A stretch of DNA of 54,916 nucleotides, from positions 1 through 54,916 of the forward strand of contig JBEIPA010000034.1 in NCBI GenBank assembly GCA_040377305.1, read 5' to 3'. Each line of letters starts with the position of its first letter. The first letter of the stretch is position 1. Below the pieces are notes generated by a model. The model did no database searches and was not told the DNA's origin. It was given only the letters and a program-made list of their open reading frames with translations. This DNA comes from Flavobacteriales bacterium (GTDB lineage: Bacteria > Bacteroidota > Bacteroidia > Palsa-965). Shown in pieces: positions 7,248 through 24,692 of this stretch. Made by a program: the position numbers and the translations under genes.

Positions 7248-7424
7248 ACTGCTGCTCACCAACGCAGACGTCATAGAATCGAGGATTTGGTTGCACGTTT
7301 CGGATGATATACGATTACACGACCGGAATGATCTGCAATCTTCGCAAGTCGCGTGTCTACTCCTTTCCGAATTCTTATCTTTAATGTGGCAAATTTTTAC
7401 ATACCTACAAAACCAATATTCAGA

Positions 7425-9779
7425 ATGAAAAAACTCTACTCAGCAATTCGTGCTAAGGTTATGCTCGCGTGTCTCGGCACATTCTTTTCTATCTCTTCTT
7501 TTGGACAAACCGATGTTCTCGTTTGCGGTGCATCTTCTCCACAGTCGTGGCTCGATGATGTAGTCAATAAACTGGTTGCAACCGGGAGCTTCAATACGGT
7601 AACCAGCTACAACATTTATTCGACCGGCACTCCTTCCCTTGCACAACTGCAGATGTATGACGCCGTTCTTGTTTTCACCGATTACAGCGCGATGGATCCC
7701 GTGACAATGGGTAATAACCTTGCGCTCTATGTTGACGGTGGTGGTGCAGTAGTAAGCGCAACATTCGCTAACGCAAGTGTGCTTCTAGGTGGTAACTGGA
7801 ATACGTCTACATATCAGGTATGCATTCCAAATAACGGACAGAACTCGAGTCCACAACTAACGCTTGGAACAGTTAATCCTTGCAGCGGAATCATGACCGG
7901 CATCACATCATTTGATGGAGGATCCAGTTCGTACCGTTCCAGCAGTTCTTCATTCGTAGCGGGATCAACAACTGAAGCAAGCTGGAGTAATGGTGAGTGG
8001 CTTGTTGCTACACGTCAGAACGTAGGTCCAATGAATGCGCGTCGTGCCGATCTTAATTTCTACCCGCCATCAAGTACTGTTCGCAGTGACTTCTGGCAGT
8101 CAGGAACACAAGGTGGAATGCTTATGGCGCGTGCATTGTTATGGGCTGCTGGTGTAATTAATAACGCTGCAGCACCTACTGCACCTGCATCAGTAAGCGG
8201 AACAAATACTTTCTGCGCAGGCTCATCATCATCATTCACCGCTGCGTCTGTAGTTGGCGCAACGTCTTACACGTGGTCAGTTCCTGTTGGAATGACTATC
8301 ACAAGCGGACAAGGAACAATCACGATCAACGTAAACTCAACTGCAGTTAGCGGAAACGTAACCGTTACTGCAGACAATGCATGTGGTTCGAGCACACCAA
8401 CAACTTATGCGGTTACTGTAAATCCACAACCCACTGTAGGTTCTACAGCTTCTCCATCAGTTACGGTTTGTAGTGGCACTCCTGTTACTTTAAGCGGAAC
8501 AGGAGCTTCAATGTATGCATGGACTGGTGGTGTAGTAGACGGTGTTCCATTTACACCTGTCATGAGTGGAACATATACCGTAACAGGTACAGATGCTAAC
8601 GGATGTACGAATACATCTACTTCTTCTATCACGGTTAATGCACTTCCTTCAGTTGTTGCGAATACAACTGCTTCTGCGGTGTGTACTGGTAACGCGGTTA
8701 CGCTTAGCGGATCGGGCGCGGCTAACTATACTTGGACAGGTGGTGTAATGGATGCAGTTCCGTTCACTCCGGCTTCAACAGACACTTACACGGTTACAGG
8801 AACAGATGCGAACGGTTGTTCAAACACAGCTTCAGTAATGGTAACGGTGAATGCGCTGCCGATTGTAGTTGCGAATACTTCAGCTTCTGCAGTGTGTGCC
8901 GGCGATCAGGTTACACTTTCAGGTTCAGGAGCATCAAGCTACGTGTGGACAGGCGGCGTAATGGATGCAGTTGCGTTTACTCCGGTTTCAACAGACACAT
9001 ACACGGTTACAGGGACGGATGCGAACGGTTGTTCGAACACGGCTAATGTAATGGTAACGTTGAACGCTCTTCCAACTGTTGGAAGCAATCCTTCTTCTGC
9101 TACTGTATGTGAAGATGGTCAGGTTACATTGAGCGGAACAGGTGCAGCAATGTACATGTGGATGCCGATGATTACAGATGCATCACCATTTACTCCGGCA
9201 ATAAGCGACACGTACACTGTAACAGGAACTGATGCAAACGGATGTTCAAATACTGCAACAGTATCAGTTACTGTAAACGCTAATCCTATTGTTACAGGTT
9301 CTGCACCGGTTTCAATTGCTTGTTTGGATGATGCGGCAATCACGCTTTCAGAATCTCCTGCGGGCGGTATCTGGACAGGACCTGGCATGTCAGGAAGTGT
9401 TTTCACTCCGATGACGGCTGGTAACGGAACACATCAGTTGATTTATTCTTACTCTGATGCAAATTCATGTGTTGCTTCGGATACAGTTTCAATCCAGGTT
9501 GATCTTTGTCTCGGACTTGCAGACAACGCAACAAACAACTTCAATGTGTACCCGAATCCAAACAACGGAACATTCACACTTGCAATCAATAAAAACGCAG
9601 GTGACGTGGTGATCGAAATGGTTGATCTTGCAGGACGTGTTGTTTACTCTGCAAATGAGAACAACGTTCAATCAGGATTCACAACTCAGATCGTTACTGA
9701 AAACCTCGCGGCTGGTTCGTATGTGCTGCGTGTGACTTCTGCGAATGAGCAGAATGTTGTTCGTGTTAACGTTCAGTAG
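7425..9779 (+). CDS. T9SS type-A cargo protein with Ig-like/PKD repeats (paralog 1)
   Basis: Signal peptide; TYTVTGTDANGC repeats with about 71-aa period; C-terminal VYPNPNNG...LAAGSYVLRV domain. Start trimmed to match the paralog. Confidence 0.88.
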   Translation: MKKLYSAIRAKVMLACLGTFFSISSFGQTDVLVCGASSPQSWLDDVVNKLVATGSFNTVTSYNIYSTGTPSLAQLQMYDAVLVFTDYSAMDPVTMGNNLALYVDGGGAVVSATFANASVLLGGNWNTSTYQVCIPNNGQNSSPQLTLGTVNPCSGIMTGITSFDGGSSSYRSSSSSFVAGSTTEASWSNGEWLVATRQNVGPMNARRADLNFYPPSSTVRSDFWQSGTQGGMLMARALLWAAGVINNAAAPTAPASVSGTNTFCAGSSSSFTAASVVGATSYTWSVPVGMTITSGQGTITINVNSTAVSGNVTVTADNACGSSTPTTYAVTVNPQPTVGSTASPSVTVCSGTPVTLSGTGASMYAWTGGVVDGVPFTPVMSGTYTVTGTDANGCTNTSTSSITVNALPSVVANTTASAVCTGNAVTLSGSGAANYTWTGGVMDAVPFTPASTDTYTVTGTDANGCSNTASVMVTVNALPIVVANTSASAVCAGDQVTLSGSGASSYVWTGGVMDAVAFTPVSTDTYTVTGTDANGCSNTANVMVTLNALPTVGSNPSSATVCEDGQVTLSGTGAAMYMWMPMITDASPFTPAISDTYTVTGTDANGCSNTATVSVTVNANPIVTGSAPVSIACLDDAAITLSESPAGGIWTGPGMSGSVFTPMTAGNGTHQLIYSYSDANSCVASDTVSIQVDLCLGLADNATNNFNVYPNPNNGTFTLAINKNAGDVVIEMVDLAGRVVYSANENNVQSGFTTQIVTENLAAGSYVLRVTSANEQNVVRVNVQ

Positions 9780-10137: not shown

Positions 10138-12282
10138 ATGAAAAAACTCTACACAGCAATTCGTGCAAAGATTGTGCTCGCTTGTCTCGGCATTTTCTTG
10201 TCAACCTCTTCATTTGCGCAGACCGATGTCCTCGTTTGTGGCGCATGTTCACCTCAATCGTGGCTCGATGATGTAGTCAACAAACTCATTGCTACAGGCA
10301 GTTTCAACAGTGTAACCGGCTACAACATTTACCTCACAGGCACACCTACGCTTGCCCAGTTGCAAGCTTATGATGCTGTCATGGTTTTCACGGATTACCA
10401 GGCTGCAGATCCTACAACTTTCGGTGACAACCTCGCGATGTACATCGATGGTGGTGGTGGTGTAGTAAACAGCACGTTCGCCAATGCCAGCGTACTTCTT
10501 GGCGGGAATTTCAATACTGCAACCTATCAGGTTTCCATTCCTGCATTCGGACAATTCGGAAGCCCGCAGTTAACGCTCGGCTCTATCCTTGATCCTTGCA
10601 GTCCGATCATGGACAACGTTACAACCTTTAATGGCGGATCAAGTTCTTACCGTTCGAACGCAACAACATTCGTCCCGGGCTCAGTAACAGTTTCAAACTG
10701 GAGTAACGGAGAATGGCTCGTTGCAACACGCACAAACGTTGGACCATTAAACGCACGTCGTTGCGACCTTAACTTCTACCCTCCTTCAAGCGATGTGCGT
10801 AGCGACTTCTGGCAATCGTCAACAAACGGTGCAACACTGATGGCCAATGCACTTCTGTGGGTAGCAGGTGTAACCAATAGCGCTTCAACTCCTACTCCGC
10901 CCGCTTCTGTAACCGGTGCACCAGTTTTCTGTGCAGGTTCTGTTTCTTCATTCACGGCTGCAGCTGTGGTGGGAGCTACATCTTACACATGGACAGTTCC
11001 AGTTGGAATGACAATCACAAGCGGACAGGGTACAATCACAATCAATGTAAACTCAACTGCGCAGACGGGAACCGTATCAGTTACAGCGAACAATTCCTGT
11101 GGTTCAAGCACTCCTACCACTTATTCATTTAGTGTGAATCCTCAGCCAACTGTTGGATCTACAGCAGCACCATCGATGGCAATATGTAACGGCTCTCCAA
11201 TTACACTGAACGGTACGGGTGCAGTTTCCTACACATGGTCGGGTGGTATTTTTGATGGTGTTGCTTTTACACCACCATCCAGCACGTCTTATATTGTGAC
11301 CGGTACTGATGCAAACGGATGTACGAATACTGCAACAGCAAACGTTACTGTGAACCCACTTCCAAACGTTGGCGCAACTACAACAGCTACTAGCATTTGT
11401 GCAGGTGGTTCAGTTACGCTGAATGGAACCGGGGCTACTTCTTACACCTGGAGCCACAGTGTGATAGACAATACACCATTCAATCCAACGGTAACAACTA
11501 CTTACACCGTAACTGGTACAGATGCAAATGGATGCACAGATCAGGGAGTGGTTACAGTGAACGTATTTAATTCACTCAACGTAGGTAGCAACCCGCCATC
11601 TGCAAGTGTTTGTAACGGCGGTACCGTTACACTCTCAGGAACAGGTGCATCTTCTTACAGCTGGTCACCTGCAATTACCAATGGTCAACCTTTCACTCCA
11701 ACAGTAAGCGGCACGTACACAGTTACAGGTACTGCTTCAAACGGATGTTTTGACACGGCTACTGTTCTGGTCACTGTTGATTCATTCCCAACTGTTACGG
11801 CTACGGCTCCAGTTACAATTGCATGTCTTAACGATGCGTCGTTTACTATCACAGGTAATCCTGCTGGTGGATTGTGGACTGGTCCTGGCGTTGCAAGCAG
11901 TACGTTCAATCCTGCAGGTGCTGGAATTGGCTCGCACATGTTGATTTACGGTTACATGAATGCTGCAGGATGTGCGGCTCAGGATACAATTTTCATGACT
12001 GTTGATCTCTGCCTTGGAATTACAGACAACACGTCAAATAATTACAACGTTTATCCTAACCCGAACAACGGAACATTCACACTTGCTATCAACAGCAATC
12101 CAGGTGATGTAGTAATCGAAATGGTTGATCTAACAGGACGTGTTGTTTACTCAGCTAATGAGAACAACGTTCAGTCAGGATTCACTACACAGATTGTTAC
12201 AGAAAACCTTGCTGCCGGAGCTTATATGCTACGTGTTACTTCTGCAAATGATCAGCAGGTAATCCGTATCAACGTACAGTAA
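10138..12282 (+). CDS. T9SS type-A cargo protein with Ig-like/PKD repeats (paralog 2)
   Basis: Collinear with 7425-9779 but one Ig repeat shorter; VYPNPNNG C-terminal domain. Confidence 0.88.
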   Translation: MKKLYTAIRAKIVLACLGIFLSTSSFAQTDVLVCGACSPQSWLDDVVNKLIATGSFNSVTGYNIYLTGTPTLAQLQAYDAVMVFTDYQAADPTTFGDNLAMYIDGGGGVVNSTFANASVLLGGNFNTATYQVSIPAFGQFGSPQLTLGSILDPCSPIMDNVTTFNGGSSSYRSNATTFVPGSVTVSNWSNGEWLVATRTNVGPLNARRCDLNFYPPSSDVRSDFWQSSTNGATLMANALLWVAGVTNSASTPTPPASVTGAPVFCAGSVSSFTAAAVVGATSYTWTVPVGMTITSGQGTITINVNSTAQTGTVSVTANNSCGSSTPTTYSFSVNPQPTVGSTAAPSMAICNGSPITLNGTGAVSYTWSGGIFDGVAFTPPSSTSYIVTGTDANGCTNTATANVTVNPLPNVGATTTATSICAGGSVTLNGTGATSYTWSHSVIDNTPFNPTVTTTYTVTGTDANGCTDQGVVTVNVFNSLNVGSNPPSASVCNGGTVTLSGTGASSYSWSPAITNGQPFTPTVSGTYTVTGTASNGCFDTATVLVTVDSFPTVTATAPVTIACLNDASFTITGNPAGGLWTGPGVASSTFNPAGAGIGSHMLIYGYMNAAGCAAQDTIFMTVDLCLGITDNTSNNYNVYPNPNNGTFTLAINSNPGDVVIEMVDLTGRVVYSANENNVQSGFTTQIVTENLAAGAYMLRVTSANDQQVIRINVQ

Positions 12283-13966: not shown

Positions 13967-14026
13967 CCTTGTCAGACCGAGCACTTCGACTGCGCTCAGT
14001 ATGAACTTCGTCGAGGGCTGGCAAGG
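13967..14026. repeat. Nested REP-like element
   Basis: ttgtcagaccgagc[acttcgactgcgctcagtatgaac]ttcgtcgagggc. Confidence 0.75.
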
Positions 14027-14170: not shown

Positions 14171-14419
14171 TTTGTTAATGCATCACCATAACGTGATTTC
14201 AACGTTTCCTATTGGAGAAACCGCAACGAAGAAATTGATTTTGTGATCGAAAAACGAGGCACAGTTATCGGTCTTGAAATTAAAAGCGCTAATACCCAAC
14301 GTGCTTCCGGCATGAGTGCATTCGCGAGACAGATGAAGCCCGATAAAATTCTGATGGTTGGCAAAAGCGGAATGCCGTGGAAGGAGTTTTTGAAAGTGAA
14401 TCCGGTGGAGTTGTTTTGA
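14171..14419 (+). pseudogene. 3' remnant of an AAA+ ATPase (DUF4143-type C-terminal domain)
   Basis: Not in the ORF track. Translates as FVNASP*RDFNVSYWRNRNEEIDFVIEKRGTVIGLEIKS...MPWKEFLKVNPVELF*; the YWR..E.DF...EIKS signature is present, with no N-terminal part. Confidence 0.7.
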
Positions 14420-14464
14420 GTGGTCGAATAATTTGATTCGTAAGTACTGGAGAATTCGAAGCCT

Positions 14465-17149
14465 TTAAGGATTTCCACAAGTCGCATCGACCTTCGCCTG
14501 AGTAGCAGAGATTGCATTTTTCTCAGCTGCATCTGCATTGGCTTTAGATCTTGCATTCGCGTCATCAGCTGTCTTTCGCATAGAATCGGCGGCGGCTTTC
14601 TTCGCAGCTTTCTCTAAGGGATTCTTATAGCTCTTCTCTACTCTATCCGCTTCAGCGTAAGCAGCTGTTTTTGCATCGTCCGCAGTCTTGTATGCTGCAG
14701 CTTTCAGAATGCCTGCATTTGTTTTCGCAGCGGCCAACTGTTTTCTGGCTTCATCGCATCCCACATCGCTAACTACGACCTTTGTGGCTGTATCACTACT
14801 ATTTGCGGGCTTCACATCCTGAAAGGCGCCATAGAACGGGAAAATAACTTCCATGATTTGTCTGTCGATCTCTGCCTGTTGTTTCGCTTTCTCCTGTCTT
14901 ACCTCATAAGCACGAGTCTCCTTCATATAATTCACTTCCGTATCGAATTCCGATCCGACTTTTCCAGCGAACAATCCATTCAATGAATTTCTCAACGACG
15001 ATTCATCAGTTGCAATCAAAGTCACATTCACAGACCCAGGTGTTACCGTTGGTGTTGTCGACGAAAACCAAGTCCCATCTTTTTCTGCCATCACCACCAA
15101 ACTGTAATCAAGAAGTTCATTCAGTTTTTCGGAATACGCTCCATTTACTTCATTAACTCGCATAAAACAAGGCAAGCTATCAGTTACGAGATAAACCATG
15201 ACTTGATTGTAAGTTGCTGCATCCGGAATGTTGATTTGCAGTTCTTCATACCTGATCACCGCTGTCCTTCCGGTAGTCGGATCTGTGTAATCTAAAGTTG
15301 TGCGGTTAACAGTCGACTCCCATACAAATGCATCGACATTTTTCCAGCCGGTGGTTTCTACCTGAAGACCATACGATTCTCCACCTCCTCCACCTTGGTA
15401 TTCAACTTTTGCAGTACGGGAGATCCCTAGTTGTTCATAAGCTTCACGAATATTGATTTCATACTCGGCACGTAGGTTTTCACCGTACTGATCAATCTTA
15501 TCTATCTCCCGTTCATATTGACCGGCGAAATAAATACTATCCTGCTTTCTCTGTTCATCTGTTCTACCGTTATATGTTCTCTCACTTGCAGTTCGAGCCG
15601 CTTCTTGTTTCTTCTGGTAATATTCCTGAAGCTCTTTCATGTGCGATTGAGAAACAGCAACGCCTCCATCATGACGAGCATAAAACCCCCGAAACTGTTC
15701 TCCTCCAGCCATGTTCATAGCCATGCTGTCGATCTGGTACAACTTCTTATCCAGATTGTTTACATACAAGTCGAGCATTCCGGGATTTCCGAGTGAGAAA
15801 ATTACCTGAAGGCGTTCTTCAAATTCTTTTGTGGCGATCAATGTGTTTTGAAATTCTGCTGTGTGAATTGCTGCGATTCTTGCTGGATCAATTTCCATTC
15901 CGTATGGTTTTCCTCCGTGATCAGCGTAAGCAAGAATGGCATCTATTTCTGCATTGGTGAGTCTTGGAAACGCAGTCATTACACTTTTGTTCTGTTGATA
16001 TAGTTTGTTAGCGTAAGGTTCCCCTGATTTAACCACAGCAGATGGATTGTGTACATAATCATACTTCCAATCTCCACCTGGTATTCTGCTCAACACCCCT
16101 TTAAGACCTGAACCGGTGCTTCGTTGTTCCGTTGTTGTATGACACGAAGCACAATTTGCATTGAACAGCTTTTCGCCATCCACACTGATTTCATTTGAAT
16201 AGAATACTTGTGATCTTAATGTATCCATTTCAGAATAAATTTCCTCCATAGGTTGCAGGAACTGTTGCTGTCTCCCCGCATACGAATAATAAATACTATC
16301 CGTCACCGTACTGTCGTTCGCATCAAAACCCAGCTCCGCAACTTTCTCCAGAAAACCATCCGGATAAAAATTCAGCGAGAAAATATCCACCGGAATCAAT
16401 TGCTTCTCCATGGGTTTTGGATTCACCCAGTTGATGCCGCCATCTGCGGTGCGTTCTCCTTCGAAGAGCTGCATGCCGGGACGGATTTCATTCGTTGGTA
16501 CGTTCGCGTATACCGGCTTATCCGGATTGATCTTCAGAGATGCTTCCCCGTTGCGCGCGTTCAGATAAAACATTCCACCCGTTTCGAGTAATTCACCGTT
16601 GCTGGTTGTTGAAAGTCCGGCTTTCATGATGTCCATTGGTGTGAGTGCTTCACGGATTTCGAGTGTGAACTGATCTCCGGCGTTGAGGAATGCACCTGCA
16701 GGAATCGCGAAAACAATTCCACCCATCGTTTCAATTACGGTGTCTTTCGCCGGATTGATCTCGAACAGTTGAGTCGGCAGATTACGATCTGCATCTGCCC
16801 AATTAGTTCCACCTTCTTCGTTGGTAGCAGGAAGTTCGTATGTAATTTCCGCTCCGTCGGTTGTTGTCGAAGTTGTTGTCGCGAGATAAGCAGAAGTTGC
16901 GATCGCAGCAACCGCTAAAGTCGCAATGCCCCACTTGTATAACTTATTTTTCAGCGTAATCTTCTTGAATGTCTGCGCAGTTGCCGCTTTCATTCCGATG
17001 CGCTCAATTCCCGCTCGGAGGTTGCGTTGCGTGTTCACCTGGTCGAGCAAAGAAGCATCGCTGTTCATCTTCGCCTCAAACGAAGCTGAATCTTCTGCAT
17101 TCATTGTACCGTCGAGGTACGCGTCTATCTGATCGATGAGATTGTTCAT
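14465..17149 (-). CDS. Putative single-pass anti-sigma factor with a periplasmic c-type cytochrome domain
   Basis: N-terminal IDAYLDGTM...FEAKM anti-sigma-like segment, one hydrophobic helix, CASCH at 16139-16153 with a likely distal Met (VMTAFP); overlaps the sigma gene (ATGA). Confidence 0.75.
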   Translation of the reverse strand: MNNLIDQIDAYLDGTMNAEDSASFEAKMNSDASLLDQVNTQRNLRAGIERIGMKAATAQTFKKITLKNKLYKWGIATLAVAAIATSAYLATTTSTTTDGAEITYELPATNEEGGTNWADADRNLPTQLFEINPAKDTVIETMGGIVFAIPAGAFLNAGDQFTLEIREALTPMDIMKAGLSTTSNGELLETGGMFYLNARNGEASLKINPDKPVYANVPTNEIRPGMQLFEGERTADGGINWVNPKPMEKQLIPVDIFSLNFYPDGFLEKVAELGFDANDSTVTDSIYYSYAGRQQQFLQPMEEIYSEMDTLRSQVFYSNEISVDGEKLFNANCASCHTTTEQRSTGSGLKGVLSRIPGGDWKYDYVHNPSAVVKSGEPYANKLYQQNKSVMTAFPRLTNAEIDAILAYADHGGKPYGMEIDPARIAAIHTAEFQNTLIATKEFEERLQVIFSLGNPGMLDLYVNNLDKKLYQIDSMAMNMAGGEQFRGFYARHDGGVAVSQSHMKELQEYYQKKQEAARTASERTYNGRTDEQRKQDSIYFAGQYEREIDKIDQYGENLRAEYEINIREAYEQLGISRTAKVEYQGGGGGESYGLQVETTGWKNVDAFVWESTVNRTTLDYTDPTTGRTAVIRYEELQINIPDAATYNQVMVYLVTDSLPCFMRVNEVNGAYSEKLNELLDYSLVVMAEKDGTWFSSTTPTVTPGSVNVTLIATDESSLRNSLNGLFAGKVGSEFDTEVNYMKETRAYEVRQEKAKQQAEIDRQIMEVIFPFYGAFQDVKPANSSDTATKVVVSDVGCDEARKQLAAAKTNAGILKAAAYKTADDAKTAAYAEADRVEKSYKNPLEKAAKKAAADSMRKTADDANARSKANADAAEKNAISATQAKVDATCGNP

Positions 17150-17697
17150 GCTTCGTTCTGTTTTAGCGTTAAATAATATTCACGCGCTTTTTCGAGACAG
17201 CGGTACTTCTGGTTTTTCGCAACGCGTTCATTGGCTAAACCAATACGCGTGGCAATCACTTTAAAATCCAGCTTCTCGAAATAAAACAGTCGCAACAGAT
17301 CACGGCACTTCTCTCCTACTTTCAGCAAAGCTTCTTCCGCCGTTTTAAATTTCGATTCTTCCTCAATGAAAGAAGAATACGTTTCAATATGTGCGGAATC
17401 GATTTCACGTTCAAAATCGCCAACGGATATTTTTCGCTTGCGTAACTCACCCAACCACTGAAAGCGACAAATGCCGATCAGGAATGTAGAAAGTGAACTC
17501 GTGAGTTTGAAATCCGGTTCTTTGATTTTGCGGAAAAGGATGATGAGCGCTTCCTGGTAAATATCTTCAGCATCCTGTTTGCTTCCACTGTTCTTCATTA
17601 CCAAACCGCGAACGGTTGAATAATGTTTGTACAGTGCTTTGATTGCTGAAGTGTATTGCCCGGCTTTCAGTTCCTGTATGATCTGCTCGTCTGTCAT
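17146..17697 (-). CDS. ECF-type RNA polymerase sigma-70 factor
   Basis: DAEDIYQEA region 2, LSTFLIGICRFQW, region 4 CRDLLRLFYF...IA...KNQKYRCL. Confidence 0.92.
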   Translation of the reverse strand: MTDEQIIQELKAGQYTSAIKALYKHYSTVRGLVMKNSGSKQDAEDIYQEALIILFRKIKEPDFKLTSSLSTFLIGICRFQWLGELRKRKISVGDFEREIDSAHIETYSSFIEEESKFKTAEEALLKVGEKCRDLLRLFYFEKLDFKVIATRIGLANERVAKNQKYRCLEKAREYYLTLKQNEA

Positions 17698-17887
17698 ACG
17701 CTTGTTTAATATGAATGCCGGGAAAGCAGAAAGGTCATCATCGGAAAGTGAAAATAACAGAAATTGAGCAGAAATAGCTGAAATACAGCCTAATTATGAT
17801 GAGATGATCTGACGATAGAATGATGGGATGGCAAAAAATGTGAAGAGGTGCGTATCATCATAACATTCCGCATAAATTGCAAACCAC

Positions 17888-23167: not shown

Positions 23168-24692
23168 CGTCTTTTTCTTTTGTCAGACCGAGCCCTTCGA
23201 CTTCGCTCTGGACAGGCTCCGTCGAGGGCGACTTTACAGGAAGAACTTCCGGATTCGGTTGCTCATATCCTGAAACAGGAACGAAACCTTCCTTCTCTCC
23301 TTCGGCAATCATAACTTTCCACGCGCTTGCACGTTCATTCGGTATAATTCCGTCGAGAATAGCTTCGCGGATTGCATCTTTAATATTGCCGACTTTCTTC
23401 GAAGGTTCAATTGCAAATGCCGCCATAATATCTTCACCAGTCACCGGTGGTTGCCAATTGCGGACCTGATCTTTCTCTTCTACACTTTTCAGCTTCTCGC
23501 GAACAGTCTGAAAGTTCTTCAGGTATTTCTGAACTTTCTCTTCCTGTTTCGAAGTGATATCGCATTCACACAAAGTCATGAGATCTTCAATATCATCTCC
23601 GGCTTCGAACAACAAACGACGAATTGCAGAATCAGTAATCTCCGTTTTAGCGAGAACAATTGGACGCAAATGCAGCATCACGAGCTTCTGCACATACTTC
23701 ATGTGTTCGTTCAACGGCAACTTCAATGCAGTGAAAATCTTCGGCACCATGCGCGCCCCACGATCTTCGTGTCCGTGGAATGTCCAGCCGTGACCTTCTT
23801 CGTATCGTTTCGTTGCAGGCTTCGCAATATCATGCAGAATAGCAGCCCAACGTAACCAAAGATTGTTAGTTTTCACTGCAACATTGTCGAGGACTTGCAA
23901 GGTGTGATAGAAATTGTCCTTATGCGCGTGACCTTTGATGACATCAACACCCTGAAGCGCCTTCATTTCAGGAAATATGAATTTCAGCAATCCTGAATTG
24001 TACAGCAGCTTGAATCCAACCGATGGAACTTTAGCAAGAATGATCTTGTTCAGTTCATCAGTGATTCTCTCCTTAGAAATGATCTTGATACGCTCAACGT
24101 TACGCGAAATCGATTTGAACGAGTCATCTTCGATTGTATAATTCAGTTGCGTCGCAAAACGAATCGCACGCATCATGCGCAAAGGATCGTCGCTGTAAGT
24201 TACATCCGGTGCTAATGGTGTACGAATCAGCTTGCGTTCTATATCTCCGATACCATCGAACGGATCGAGTAACTCTCCGTATGATTTCGGATTGAGACTA
24301 ATCGCCATCGCGTTGATCGTAAAATCGCGACGATCCTGATCGTCTTTCAACGAGCCATCTTCCACAATAGGTTTGCGTGAATCGCGACTGTAAGACTCTT
24401 TACGCGCACCAACGAATTCAACGTCCCAAGCTTCGAGTCTGATTTGCGCAGTGCCGAAATTTCTGAAAACATTGACTTGCAATTTCAATCGTTTCCCGAC
24501 AGCCTCTGCAAGACGGATTCCCACAGCTTTCATTTCCCCACTGTGATCAACAGCAACAATGTCGATGTCCTTGCACGGGCGACCGAGAATGCTGTCGCGT
24601 ACAAATCCGCCAATCACGTATGCGTCCACACCGATGCGTGCTGATTCTTCAGAAACAACAGTGAAAACGGGGTGAGTGAGGAACTTTTGCAT
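23148..24692 (-). CDS. CCA tRNA nucleotidyltransferase / poly(A) polymerase family with HD domain
   Basis: GGFVRD, DIDI, RRDFTINAMA, DDPLRMMRAIRF, LHDIAK; the C-terminal extension contains a REP element. Confidence 0.93.
   Translation of the reverse strand: MQKFLTHPVFTVVSEESARIGVDAYVIGGFVRDSILGRPCKDIDIVAVDHSGEMKAVGIRLAEAVGKRLKLQVNVFRNFGTAQIRLEAWDVEFVGARKESYSRDSRKPIVEDGSLKDDQDRRDFTINAMAISLNPKSYGELLDPFDGIGDIERKLIRTPLAPDVTYSDDPLRMMRAIRFATQLNYTIEDDSFKSISRNVERIKIISKERITDELNKIILAKVPSVGFKLLYNSGLLKFIFPEMKALQGVDVIKGHAHKDNFYHTLQVLDNVAVKTNNLWLRWAAILHDIAKPATKRYEEGHGWTFHGHEDRGARMVPKIFTALKLPLNEHMKYVQKLVMLHLRPIVLAKTEITDSAIRRLLFEAGDDIEDLMTLCECDITSKQEEKVQKYLKNFQTVREKLKSVEEKDQVRNWQPPVTGEDIMAAFAIEPSKKVGNIKDAIREAILDGIIPNERASAWKVMIAEGEKEGFVPVSGYEQPNPEVLPVKSPSTEPVQSEVEGLGLTKEKDDENSDK
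23180..23229. repeat. Nested REP-like element inside the CCA gene 3' end
   Basis: ttgtcagaccgagc[ccttcgacttcgctctggacagg]ctccgtcgagggc; outer parts identical to the 13969-14018 copy. Confidence 0.8.

Follow-up and report, generated by a model that had tools for sequence, protein, structure and literature searches.

Why does a putative anti-sigma factor carry a c-type cytochrome? The question is raised by two genes on the minus strand of the window, by which we mean the whole 54,916-nucleotide stretch analysed here (Flavobacteriales bacterium, contig JBEIPA010000034.1). One (17146..17697) encodes P0002, a sigma factor of the extracytoplasmic function (ECF) type with 183 amino acids, and the other (14465..17149) encodes P0001, a putative anti-sigma factor of 894 amino acids. 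A first-pass annotation, made from the sequence alone, had proposed that covalently bound heme lets periplasmic redox state or electron flow control transcription. Across the relatives of this pair we observed directly that the pairing is conserved and preceded by a promoter motif, that the cytochrome occupies an optional, rapidly exchanged slot, and that the cytochrome copies are not monophyletic. The domain plugged into the slot likely serves as a bait, or as a handle for docking, that was borrowed from the host, and redox sensing is likely not its obligatory role. Below, G000 denotes the genome of the window's host.

A sigma factor and its putative membrane anti-sigma factor

Both open reading frames and their ATGA overlap were present on the minus strand as first described. 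The ECF assignment also held: P0002 scored 67.4 bits against TIGR02937 (sigma70-ECF; cut-off 42.9) and consisted of sigma2 and sigma4 regions only, with PF04542 above its cut-off and a weak sigma4 match. P0001 was assigned from its open reading frame, from a survey of gene pairing, and from an AlphaFold2 model (alignment of 150 sequences, mean predicted local distance difference test score 86). The modelled chain starts with helices and continues through a membrane segment of poor prediction quality into a beta domain; next comes a helical region that contains the cytochrome, and then another beta domain and a hairpin at the end.

We scanned genome and metagenome contigs for the locus and kept 78 and 80 loci, respectively, from 238 and 143 confirmed relatives, on contigs titled mostly Bacteroidia, Flavobacteriales and Chitinophagaceae. 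After removal of duplicates there were 152 genes: 135 with the N-terminal domain of P0001, nine complete genes without it, and eight fragments, which were set aside. Three of the 135 had too short a flank to be counted. A sigma gene lay upstream of all 132 others (130 adjacent, two one gene away) and beside none of the nine complete genes without the domain (one of these nine with a short flank). The nine represent about five lineages in the scaffold tree. The co-transcribed pair proposed at first was therefore conserved wherever the N-terminal domain and enough flank were present. The family looks patchy in distribution among the searched genomes; a draw of 300 genomes from the phylum contained one other carrier at E<=1e-30. 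The conclusions do not depend on the unpublished genome G012.

Residues 1-68 of P0001 (16946..17149, minus strand) make up a cytoplasmic, helical, anti-sigma-like domain without zinc ligands, as judged from the model and profiles. The predicted helices span residues 2-12, 18-30 and, as one long helix, 32-73; a class I anti-sigma (ASDI) domain is a three-helix bundle with a fourth helix. The anti-sigma-like segment of the first-pass annotation was thus helical in the model, and against anti-sigma models its matches in P0001 stayed below the cut-offs. Elsewhere in the family, the anti-sigma model NF052375 matched 22 of 32 members and zf-HC2 matched 14 of 32 (E<=0.1). The HxxxCxxC motif of zinc-binding anti-sigma (ZAS) domains occurred in 0 of 247 family members, and a PDB profile search with the N-terminal domain gave no significant anti-sigma match. 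Two ASDI features were found: the gene adjoins an ECF gene, and a single transmembrane helix follows the domain. This helix (residues 73-92; 16874..16933, minus strand), predicted from family hydropathy and charge bias to have its N-terminus inside, was weak in P0001 alone: the Kyte-Doolittle value over residues 74-92 peaks at 1.48, and the higher peak, over residues 137-155, falls on a beta strand of the model. Across 247 members it was clear (median hydropathy 1.93), with a net charge of +5 before and -0.6 after it. G000 encodes an M50 site-2 protease. By sequence, P0002 and P0001 are likely a conserved ECF sigma factor and its membrane anti-sigma factor.

Some loci were arranged differently. 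An extra gene lay between the sigma and anti-sigma genes at L042:1679-2167 and L069:5303-5995, and a second scaffold or N-terminal-domain gene lay a few kilobases from the first at L058:2-2497 and L071:2-1045. G000 also has a paralogous sigma gene with a 312-amino-acid partner carrying the same type of N-terminal domain (L191:3497-4979, contig C30), and its upstream region has back-to-back GGTAAC/GGTTACC boxes. In the genome G011, the paralogous sigma gene has as its divergent neighbour a sigma-less homologue of the scaffold, whose promoter matches.

The cytochrome c domain

Residues 322-410 of P0001 (15920..16186, minus strand) are an ActA-type class I monoheme cytochrome c by Pfam and PDB matches. 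The CxxCH motif (C333, C336 and H337 in residues 333-337; 16139-16153) and the distal Met391 (codon at 15977-15979) complete a His/Met class I domain, and Cytochrom_C was above its cut-off over residues 323-408. The best PDB sequence match was ActA of alternative complex III (6btm_A, E 5e-20), and a structure search matched the fold to 3cp5 and 2l4d. Both the complete monoheme domain and the likeness to ActA that the annotation reported were borne out. The domain is a class I c-type cytochrome by sequence and predicted to be heme-loaded; G000 encodes a cytochrome c maturation/assembly gene (PF01578).

With a profile built from CxxCH-bearing domains, 139 of 141 matches kept CxxCH and the remaining two were partial; no decayed full-length domain was found among these 141. 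The distal Met was kept in 125 of 133 family cytochromes and replaced by Gln or Glu in eight. Such conservation would suit a modular redox sensor, in which heme alleles exchange electrons with alternative complex III or a terminal oxidase, the oxidation state controls proteolysis of the anti-sigma factor, and other alleles sense other cues, like RsgI paralogues with different carbohydrate-binding modules. In line with this explanation, one proposal has the ActA domain carry electrons to cytochrome aa3 as a mobile shuttle (PMC8552683), and heme c sensor domains occur in other classes of receptor. As the mechanism of the whole family it is not supported by the evidence of the slot; confined to heme-bearing alleles, we hold it to be less likely than our preferred explanation but still a live one. 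The cytochrome is, moreover, retained in members that lost the sigma link.

An optional slot with rapidly exchanged contents

Residues 1-290 and 420-775 are common to the homologues, and the intervening loop is variable. By homologue comparison the variable slot is residues 291-419 (15893..16279, minus strand). Its conserved left border, residues 284-290 (16280..16300), is where identity to the allele of G015 collapses, and on its right lies a conserved helical domain including a long helix (residues 420-590; 15380..15892), defined by alignment and model.

For 118 paired genes the loop could be closed, and 14 with unclosed loops were left out. The slot held a cytochrome in 47 of the 118, a short linker in 60 and another long insert in nine; in two, the cytochrome was at the C-terminus. 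One short-slot allele, L080, comes from a Paraflavitalea strain. A set of 261 proteins, gathered with a query that favours cytochrome-bearing matches, had a delimited loop in 259: 133 with CxxCH, 90 with a linker shorter than 90 amino acids and 36 with another long insert. Among 16 and 40 chosen homologues, the other modules named by Pfam were parvulin, DsbD-N, TonB-C, PKD and PASTA. The heme domain is an optional part of the system and not its core.

Exchange was evident between close relatives. P0012, P0014, P0025 and P0028 share 92-97% identity ahead of the loop and 96-100% beyond it. Their slots hold a degenerate parvulin together with a cytochrome, a cytochrome alone, and two parvulins of different sequence. 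Between G000 and G015 the sigma factor and residues 1-292 are 92% identical, and identity in 40-residue windows from residue 281 to 760 is 20-75%; their housekeeping PpiD proteins are 78% identical. This drop suggests that recombination took place at the slot's left border. On a 69-row scaffold tree the cytochrome state changed 16 times. By these comparisons the slot is exchanged faster than its flanks diverge. Catalytic tuning of the plug-ins looks dispensable from their sequences, with the parvulin degenerate in 9 of 41 close homologues and the distal Met missing from the eight cytochromes above.

These results bear on the redox sensor. Most paired genes have no cytochrome, near-identical alleles exchange it with parvulin, its position can be the loop or the C-terminus, and it persists in sigma-less members, all of which argues against oxidation state as the signal of the family. 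Heme signalling as a general mechanism, the central proposal of the first-pass annotation, was not supported by the survey of homologues, and its suggested check, CxxCH among sigma-paired homologues, gave only the 47 slot cytochromes and the two C-terminal ones.

Self-cleavage at an Asn/Asp-Pro bond at the right border of the slot was set aside, as Glu and Ser also occur there. No silent cassette copies of the P0001 gene were found in G000. In P0205, a segment like the AsmA tail described below lies inside the slot instead of at the C-terminus (28-30% identity, a weak match).

Likeness of the modules to host genes

Where do the plug-ins come from? ActA sequences were gathered for 30 chosen carrier genomes and G000, and 25 of these genomes gave both domains. 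The family cytochrome was closest to the ActA of its own genome in 16 of 25 (about one expected by chance). The tree of cytochrome and ActA domains had ten starred same-genome cherries, and monophyly of the family cytochromes was rejected by the approximately unbiased test (p-AU 4.5e-8, four long rows dropped). Because of this closeness to own ActA and the rejection of a single origin, the cytochrome is, on sequence grounds, a repeated gain. The P0001 cytochrome is 59-61% identical to the host's ActA domain. Tracking of the host lineage would also suit docking on host redox partners, a point in favour of redox sensing.

Other modules resemble host proteins too. Intact parvulin inserts of the parvulin-plus-cytochrome alleles and of P0042 are 63-75% identical to the PpiD of G000, and the others 30-54%. 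The C-terminal helical hairpin of P0001 (residues 792-891; 14477..14776, minus strand) is 78% identical to the C-terminus of an AsmA-family protein of the host (G000:C15), as against at most 65% to those of ten other genus members (three loci gave no tail).

Misassembly is an unlikely origin of the inserts, because they are in frame and 59-78%, not about 100%, identical to host genes. A public assembly contig covers the whole stretch with 0 differences, and that run is possibly the DNA's own source; three runs with a small share (X2-X4) gave only pieces of relatives, and no RNA run was found to contain it.

The inserts could also be passengers or accessory modules. The scaffold would then sense one common envelope signal, and its loop would tolerate mobile periplasmic domains with side activities or none. 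The many paired genes with only a short linker fit this explanation, as do the copying of ActA-like domains into unrelated genes, parvulin copies that range from 75% down to about 30% identity to PpiD, and scaffold paralogues that stand alone as lipoproteins or as an OmpA-type fusion (OmpA labelled by eye). We regard it as less likely, though live: slot contents turn over at a fixed border at a far higher rate than the flanks change, the heme ligands have persisted although synonymous sites are near saturation, and the same few domains were gained repeatedly.

The periplasmic scaffold

The first beta domain of P0001 (residues 125-250; 16400..16777, minus strand) could be placed through P0382, a 318-amino-acid lipoprotein paralogue in G000 that aligns to the corresponding domain of the family (HHalign 99.5%) and has no Pfam match. 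The model of P0382 resembled ankyrin ZU5 (Z 9.8, root-mean-square deviation 3.6, 125 residues aligned), the CD97 GAIN domain (Z 9.1), UNC5b (Z 7.4) and NLRP1/CARD8 (Z 5.7-6.6). These Z scores are middling, but ZU5/GAIN-type entries dominate its top ranks. The beta sandwich of P0001 thus appears, by way of this modelled paralogue, to be ZU5/GAIN-like. Searches with the full-length P0001 model matched only cytochromes and generic helical hairpins; matches in the ESM Atlas were three Bacteroidota clusters without names (0.91-0.94) and, as a weak lead, FAM171 (0.76).

A transthyretin-like domain comes after the ZU5-like domain in the paralogue model, and P0001 likewise has a second beta domain, transthyretin- or carboxypeptidase-regulatory-like by model and structure matches, with closing helices (residues 615-775; 14825..15307). 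Ahead of it, residues 601-606 (15332..15349, minus strand) carry the motif G-W-x-N-x-D, which by motif would be the closing strand of the ZU5-like fold. The motif occurs in 234 of 259 proteins, within the consensus [IV]-x-x-T-G-W-x-N-x-D, and W-x-N-x-D is invariant in the paralogue family. Placed in this way, the helical region and the slot probably lie ahead of the closing strand.

ZU5 domains self-cleave at His-Phe-Ser. In GAIN domains the site is His-Leu-Thr/Ser (PMC10328401). In this family we found no His-x-Ser/Thr site before the last strand, with the register set by motif and not by residue-level superposition. Canonical self-cleavage is unlikely, because Gly precedes the conserved Trp in 233 of the 234 proteins with the motif.

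Three sigma-less scaffold paralogues, P0382 among them, lie in G000 (C10:141256-142878, C10:149819-150790 and C6:202038-203351); two are lipoproteins and one is fused to the OmpA-like domain.

Predicted promoter and candidate targets

In 104 of 115 regions upstream of the sigma gene we found ACCTTT (six expected from shuffles), followed about 12 nucleotides on by CATTAA or CATTCA. In the window the predicted -35 element, GATGACCTTT, is at 17730..17739 (minus strand), and the -10 element CATTCA (family consensus CATTAA) is at 17712..17717, 12 nucleotides past the -35 box and about 14 ahead of the ATG. This copy is the best site in G000 under a matrix built from relatives. From the conserved motif ahead of the sigma gene we infer that the sigma factor autoregulates its operon.

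Genome-wide, the matrix gave no excess over a reversed control (31 versus 57 sites at score 15). With a strict pattern, 40 genomes yielded 37 rows, compared with five for the control, and 16 of the 37 were the sigma factor's own promoter, from which the pattern came. The remaining sites, of GGTTAC type, precede genes for vWA/type IX secretion system (T9SS) proteins and other exported proteins. The vWA/T9SS genes are candidates for the regulon of this sigma group. The GGTTAC-type sites were not assigned to this sigma factor, because related sites also occur in G011, G020, G021 and G022, genomes in which the paralogous sigma factor was the only one of the two found. Among the translated site matches no respiratory gene had the promoter, a further point against redox sensing. 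Six loci (L299, L300, L302, L303, L308 and L311) encode vWA-domain T9SS proteins whose GGTTAC...CATTAA-type promoter is conserved in several members of the genus.

Could P0001 be an output of the sigma factor, produced when needed as an effector in the periplasm, or a pro-sigma factor, instead of its inhibitor? G000 has no clear site of this promoter subtype apart from that of the operon itself, neighbouring genes around the pair are not conserved across the family, and the anti-sigma profile matches are weak, as such a role would predict. We think it very unlikely, since the N-terminal domain and the sigma factor go strictly together, and downstream partners of the paralogous sigma factor carry the same type of N-terminal domain on different, shorter periplasmic parts. 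The roles of inhibitor and effector are also not exclusive; RsiV, for example, is both receptor and inhibitor (PMC5014341).

The partial supplement of PMC7826278 that was searched for the ECF group (ECF03, 120, 214, 231, 274 and 275 considered) did not contain TGACC, GACCTT or CATTAA.

A possible mechanism

The explanation that we favour, tentatively and with a little less than even confidence, is plug-in mimicry: a sigma factor and a membrane anti-sigma factor that carries swappable copies of host envelope domains, the cytochrome being one plug-in, likely copied from actA. Beyond the gene anatomy, every step of it is conjecture. The N-terminal helices would hold the sigma factor inactive. The plug-in would imitate the surface of a host protein and so encounter that protein's partners or attackers. 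If it were bound, cleaved or pulled, or if it failed to mature, this would loosen the ZU5/GAIN-like scaffold, whose fold the insert would interrupt ahead of its last strand. Proteolysis, with a last cut of RseP type, would free the sigma factor, which would transcribe its own operon and amplify itself. Heme would be required for folding of the mimic and might carry electrons, and a redox change would not be the obligatory signal of the family.

Several observations weigh against plug-in mimicry. One deletion could remove the sigma gene and the N-terminal domain together, in each of about five lineages, so their pairing is an association rather than proof of binding. The 60 paired genes without a plug-in keep the sigma gene; evidently the scaffold can work without one. 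In the model of P0001, the G-W-x-N-x-D segment is not built as a strand. The window's own cytochrome ranks its own ActA only third of 25, the parvulin of G010 is 49% identical to its own PpiD and 48% to that of G000, and a single origin of the AsmA tails was not rejected (p-AU 0.25). Synonymous sites relative to the own ActA are near saturation (195 of 553, or 0.35, versus 0.32 in shuffled sequences), and relative to the own AsmA they are indistinguishable from chance (10 of 32, p 0.19). Because of this saturation the copying of host domains is old by sequence; recent copying at the DNA level was rejected, and these synonymous-site comparisons revealed no capture mechanism. Most importantly, 7 of 14 cytochrome domains of unrelated lipoproteins and CcoP-like proteins also rank their own ActA first, so the ActA domain may simply be generally mobile or co-adapting in these bacteria. 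The unrelated set that tracks its own ActA (L331-L341) consists of small cytochromes that are lipoproteins and of CcoP-like proteins, all with monoheme domains of ActA type.

A bolder explanation, which we hold doubtful and offer by analogy, would make the family a bacterial counterpart of the integrated-decoy receptors of plants. The captured ActA cytochrome, PpiD parvulin, DsbD-N, TonB-C and AsmA tail, swapped between strains at a fixed border, would be baits through which an ECF sigma factor learns that the corresponding host machines are attacked or fail. Repeated integration of host-derived domains at one site, which characterizes integrated decoys, was found here.

The sensor parts of an anti-sigma factor are usually fixed within a family, whereas here whole periplasmic domains swap faster than the flanks diverge. 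If the modules set the input, the family would be a plug-and-play sensor of the envelope that occurs in nature, possibly a parallel in bacteria to integrated-decoy immunity, and sensors could readily be built on it as a chassis. Should the heme allele respond to electron flow, alternative complex III would be connected with transcription. Given the predicted promoter and the alleles that occur naturally, these explanations are directly testable with one reporter.

Neighbouring features of the window

Directly downstream of the anti-sigma gene and on the opposite strand is a broken gene remnant (14190-14420, plus strand), whose translation we take to resemble the C-terminal part of an AAA+ ATPase/DUF4143-type protein. 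A short palindromic element resembling repetitive extragenic palindromes is at 13968-14000, with partial copies at 23180-23208, on contigs C7 and C14, and on contigs of other organisms. Two tandem genes (7353-9779 and 10138-12282, plus strand) encode paralogous large exported proteins with Thr-rich repeats and, by eye, T9SS-like C-termini. Elsewhere in G000, a lipoprotein gene is apparently split between the ends of contigs C40 and C38.

Comparison with known systems

We found no published description of this sigma/anti-sigma family in the literature covered, which leaves out most subscription journals. Its plan is that of ECF/class I anti-sigma pairs such as SigK-RskA, SigW-RsiW and RpoE-RseA: a sigma gene followed by a co-transcribed single-pass partner with an N-terminal helical domain of non-zinc type, under a promoter that is here predicted to be autoregulatory. 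In ASDI groups the added domains are typically well conserved within a group (PMC7406223), whereas here they change between near-identical alleles.

The cytochrome belongs to the same domain family as the N-terminal monoheme domain of ActA (Flavobacterium johnsoniae, 6BTM). Unlike ActA, P0001 lacks the pentaheme part and the act operon, and its cytochrome is inserted in an unrelated scaffold. Heme c sensors of chemoreceptors (GSU0582/GSU0935, Cache_heme) likewise place covalent heme in a periplasmic receptor, but those use PAS/Cache folds with chemotaxis or kinase outputs, whereas here a respiratory class I His/Met domain is carried by a putative anti-sigma factor.

The scaffold resembles, through the paralogue model, the autoproteolytic ZU5/GAIN/MAIN domains of ankyrin, UNC5b, NLRP1 FIIND, adhesion G-protein-coupled receptors and microbial MAIN, with the difference that Gly, not Ser/Thr, stands before the conserved Trp. 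Bacterial ZU5/GAIN domains are covered by PMC3482391 and by the MAIN preprint (10.64898/2026.05.12.724683), in whose available parts this family is absent; the searched text of the preprint has anti-sigma factors only as an RsgI analogy and lacks the words 'cytochrome' and 'ZU5'.

Plant NLRs with integrated domains (PMC5819176) share the repeated, independent integration of host domains beside a conserved motif in a receptor clade. The proteins are unrelated and the likeness is an analogy only; in an integrated decoy, the domain is the target of a foreign effector, which sets off signalling.

SigI-RsgI of Clostridium thermocellum (PMC10328401) likewise has a conserved periplasmic core and divergent distal modules. 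The RsgI modules are binders of external polysaccharides, and its core cleaves itself at Asn-Pro, whereas here the modules resemble host envelope proteins and sit inside a loop, on a ZU5/GAIN-like core without an evident nucleophile.

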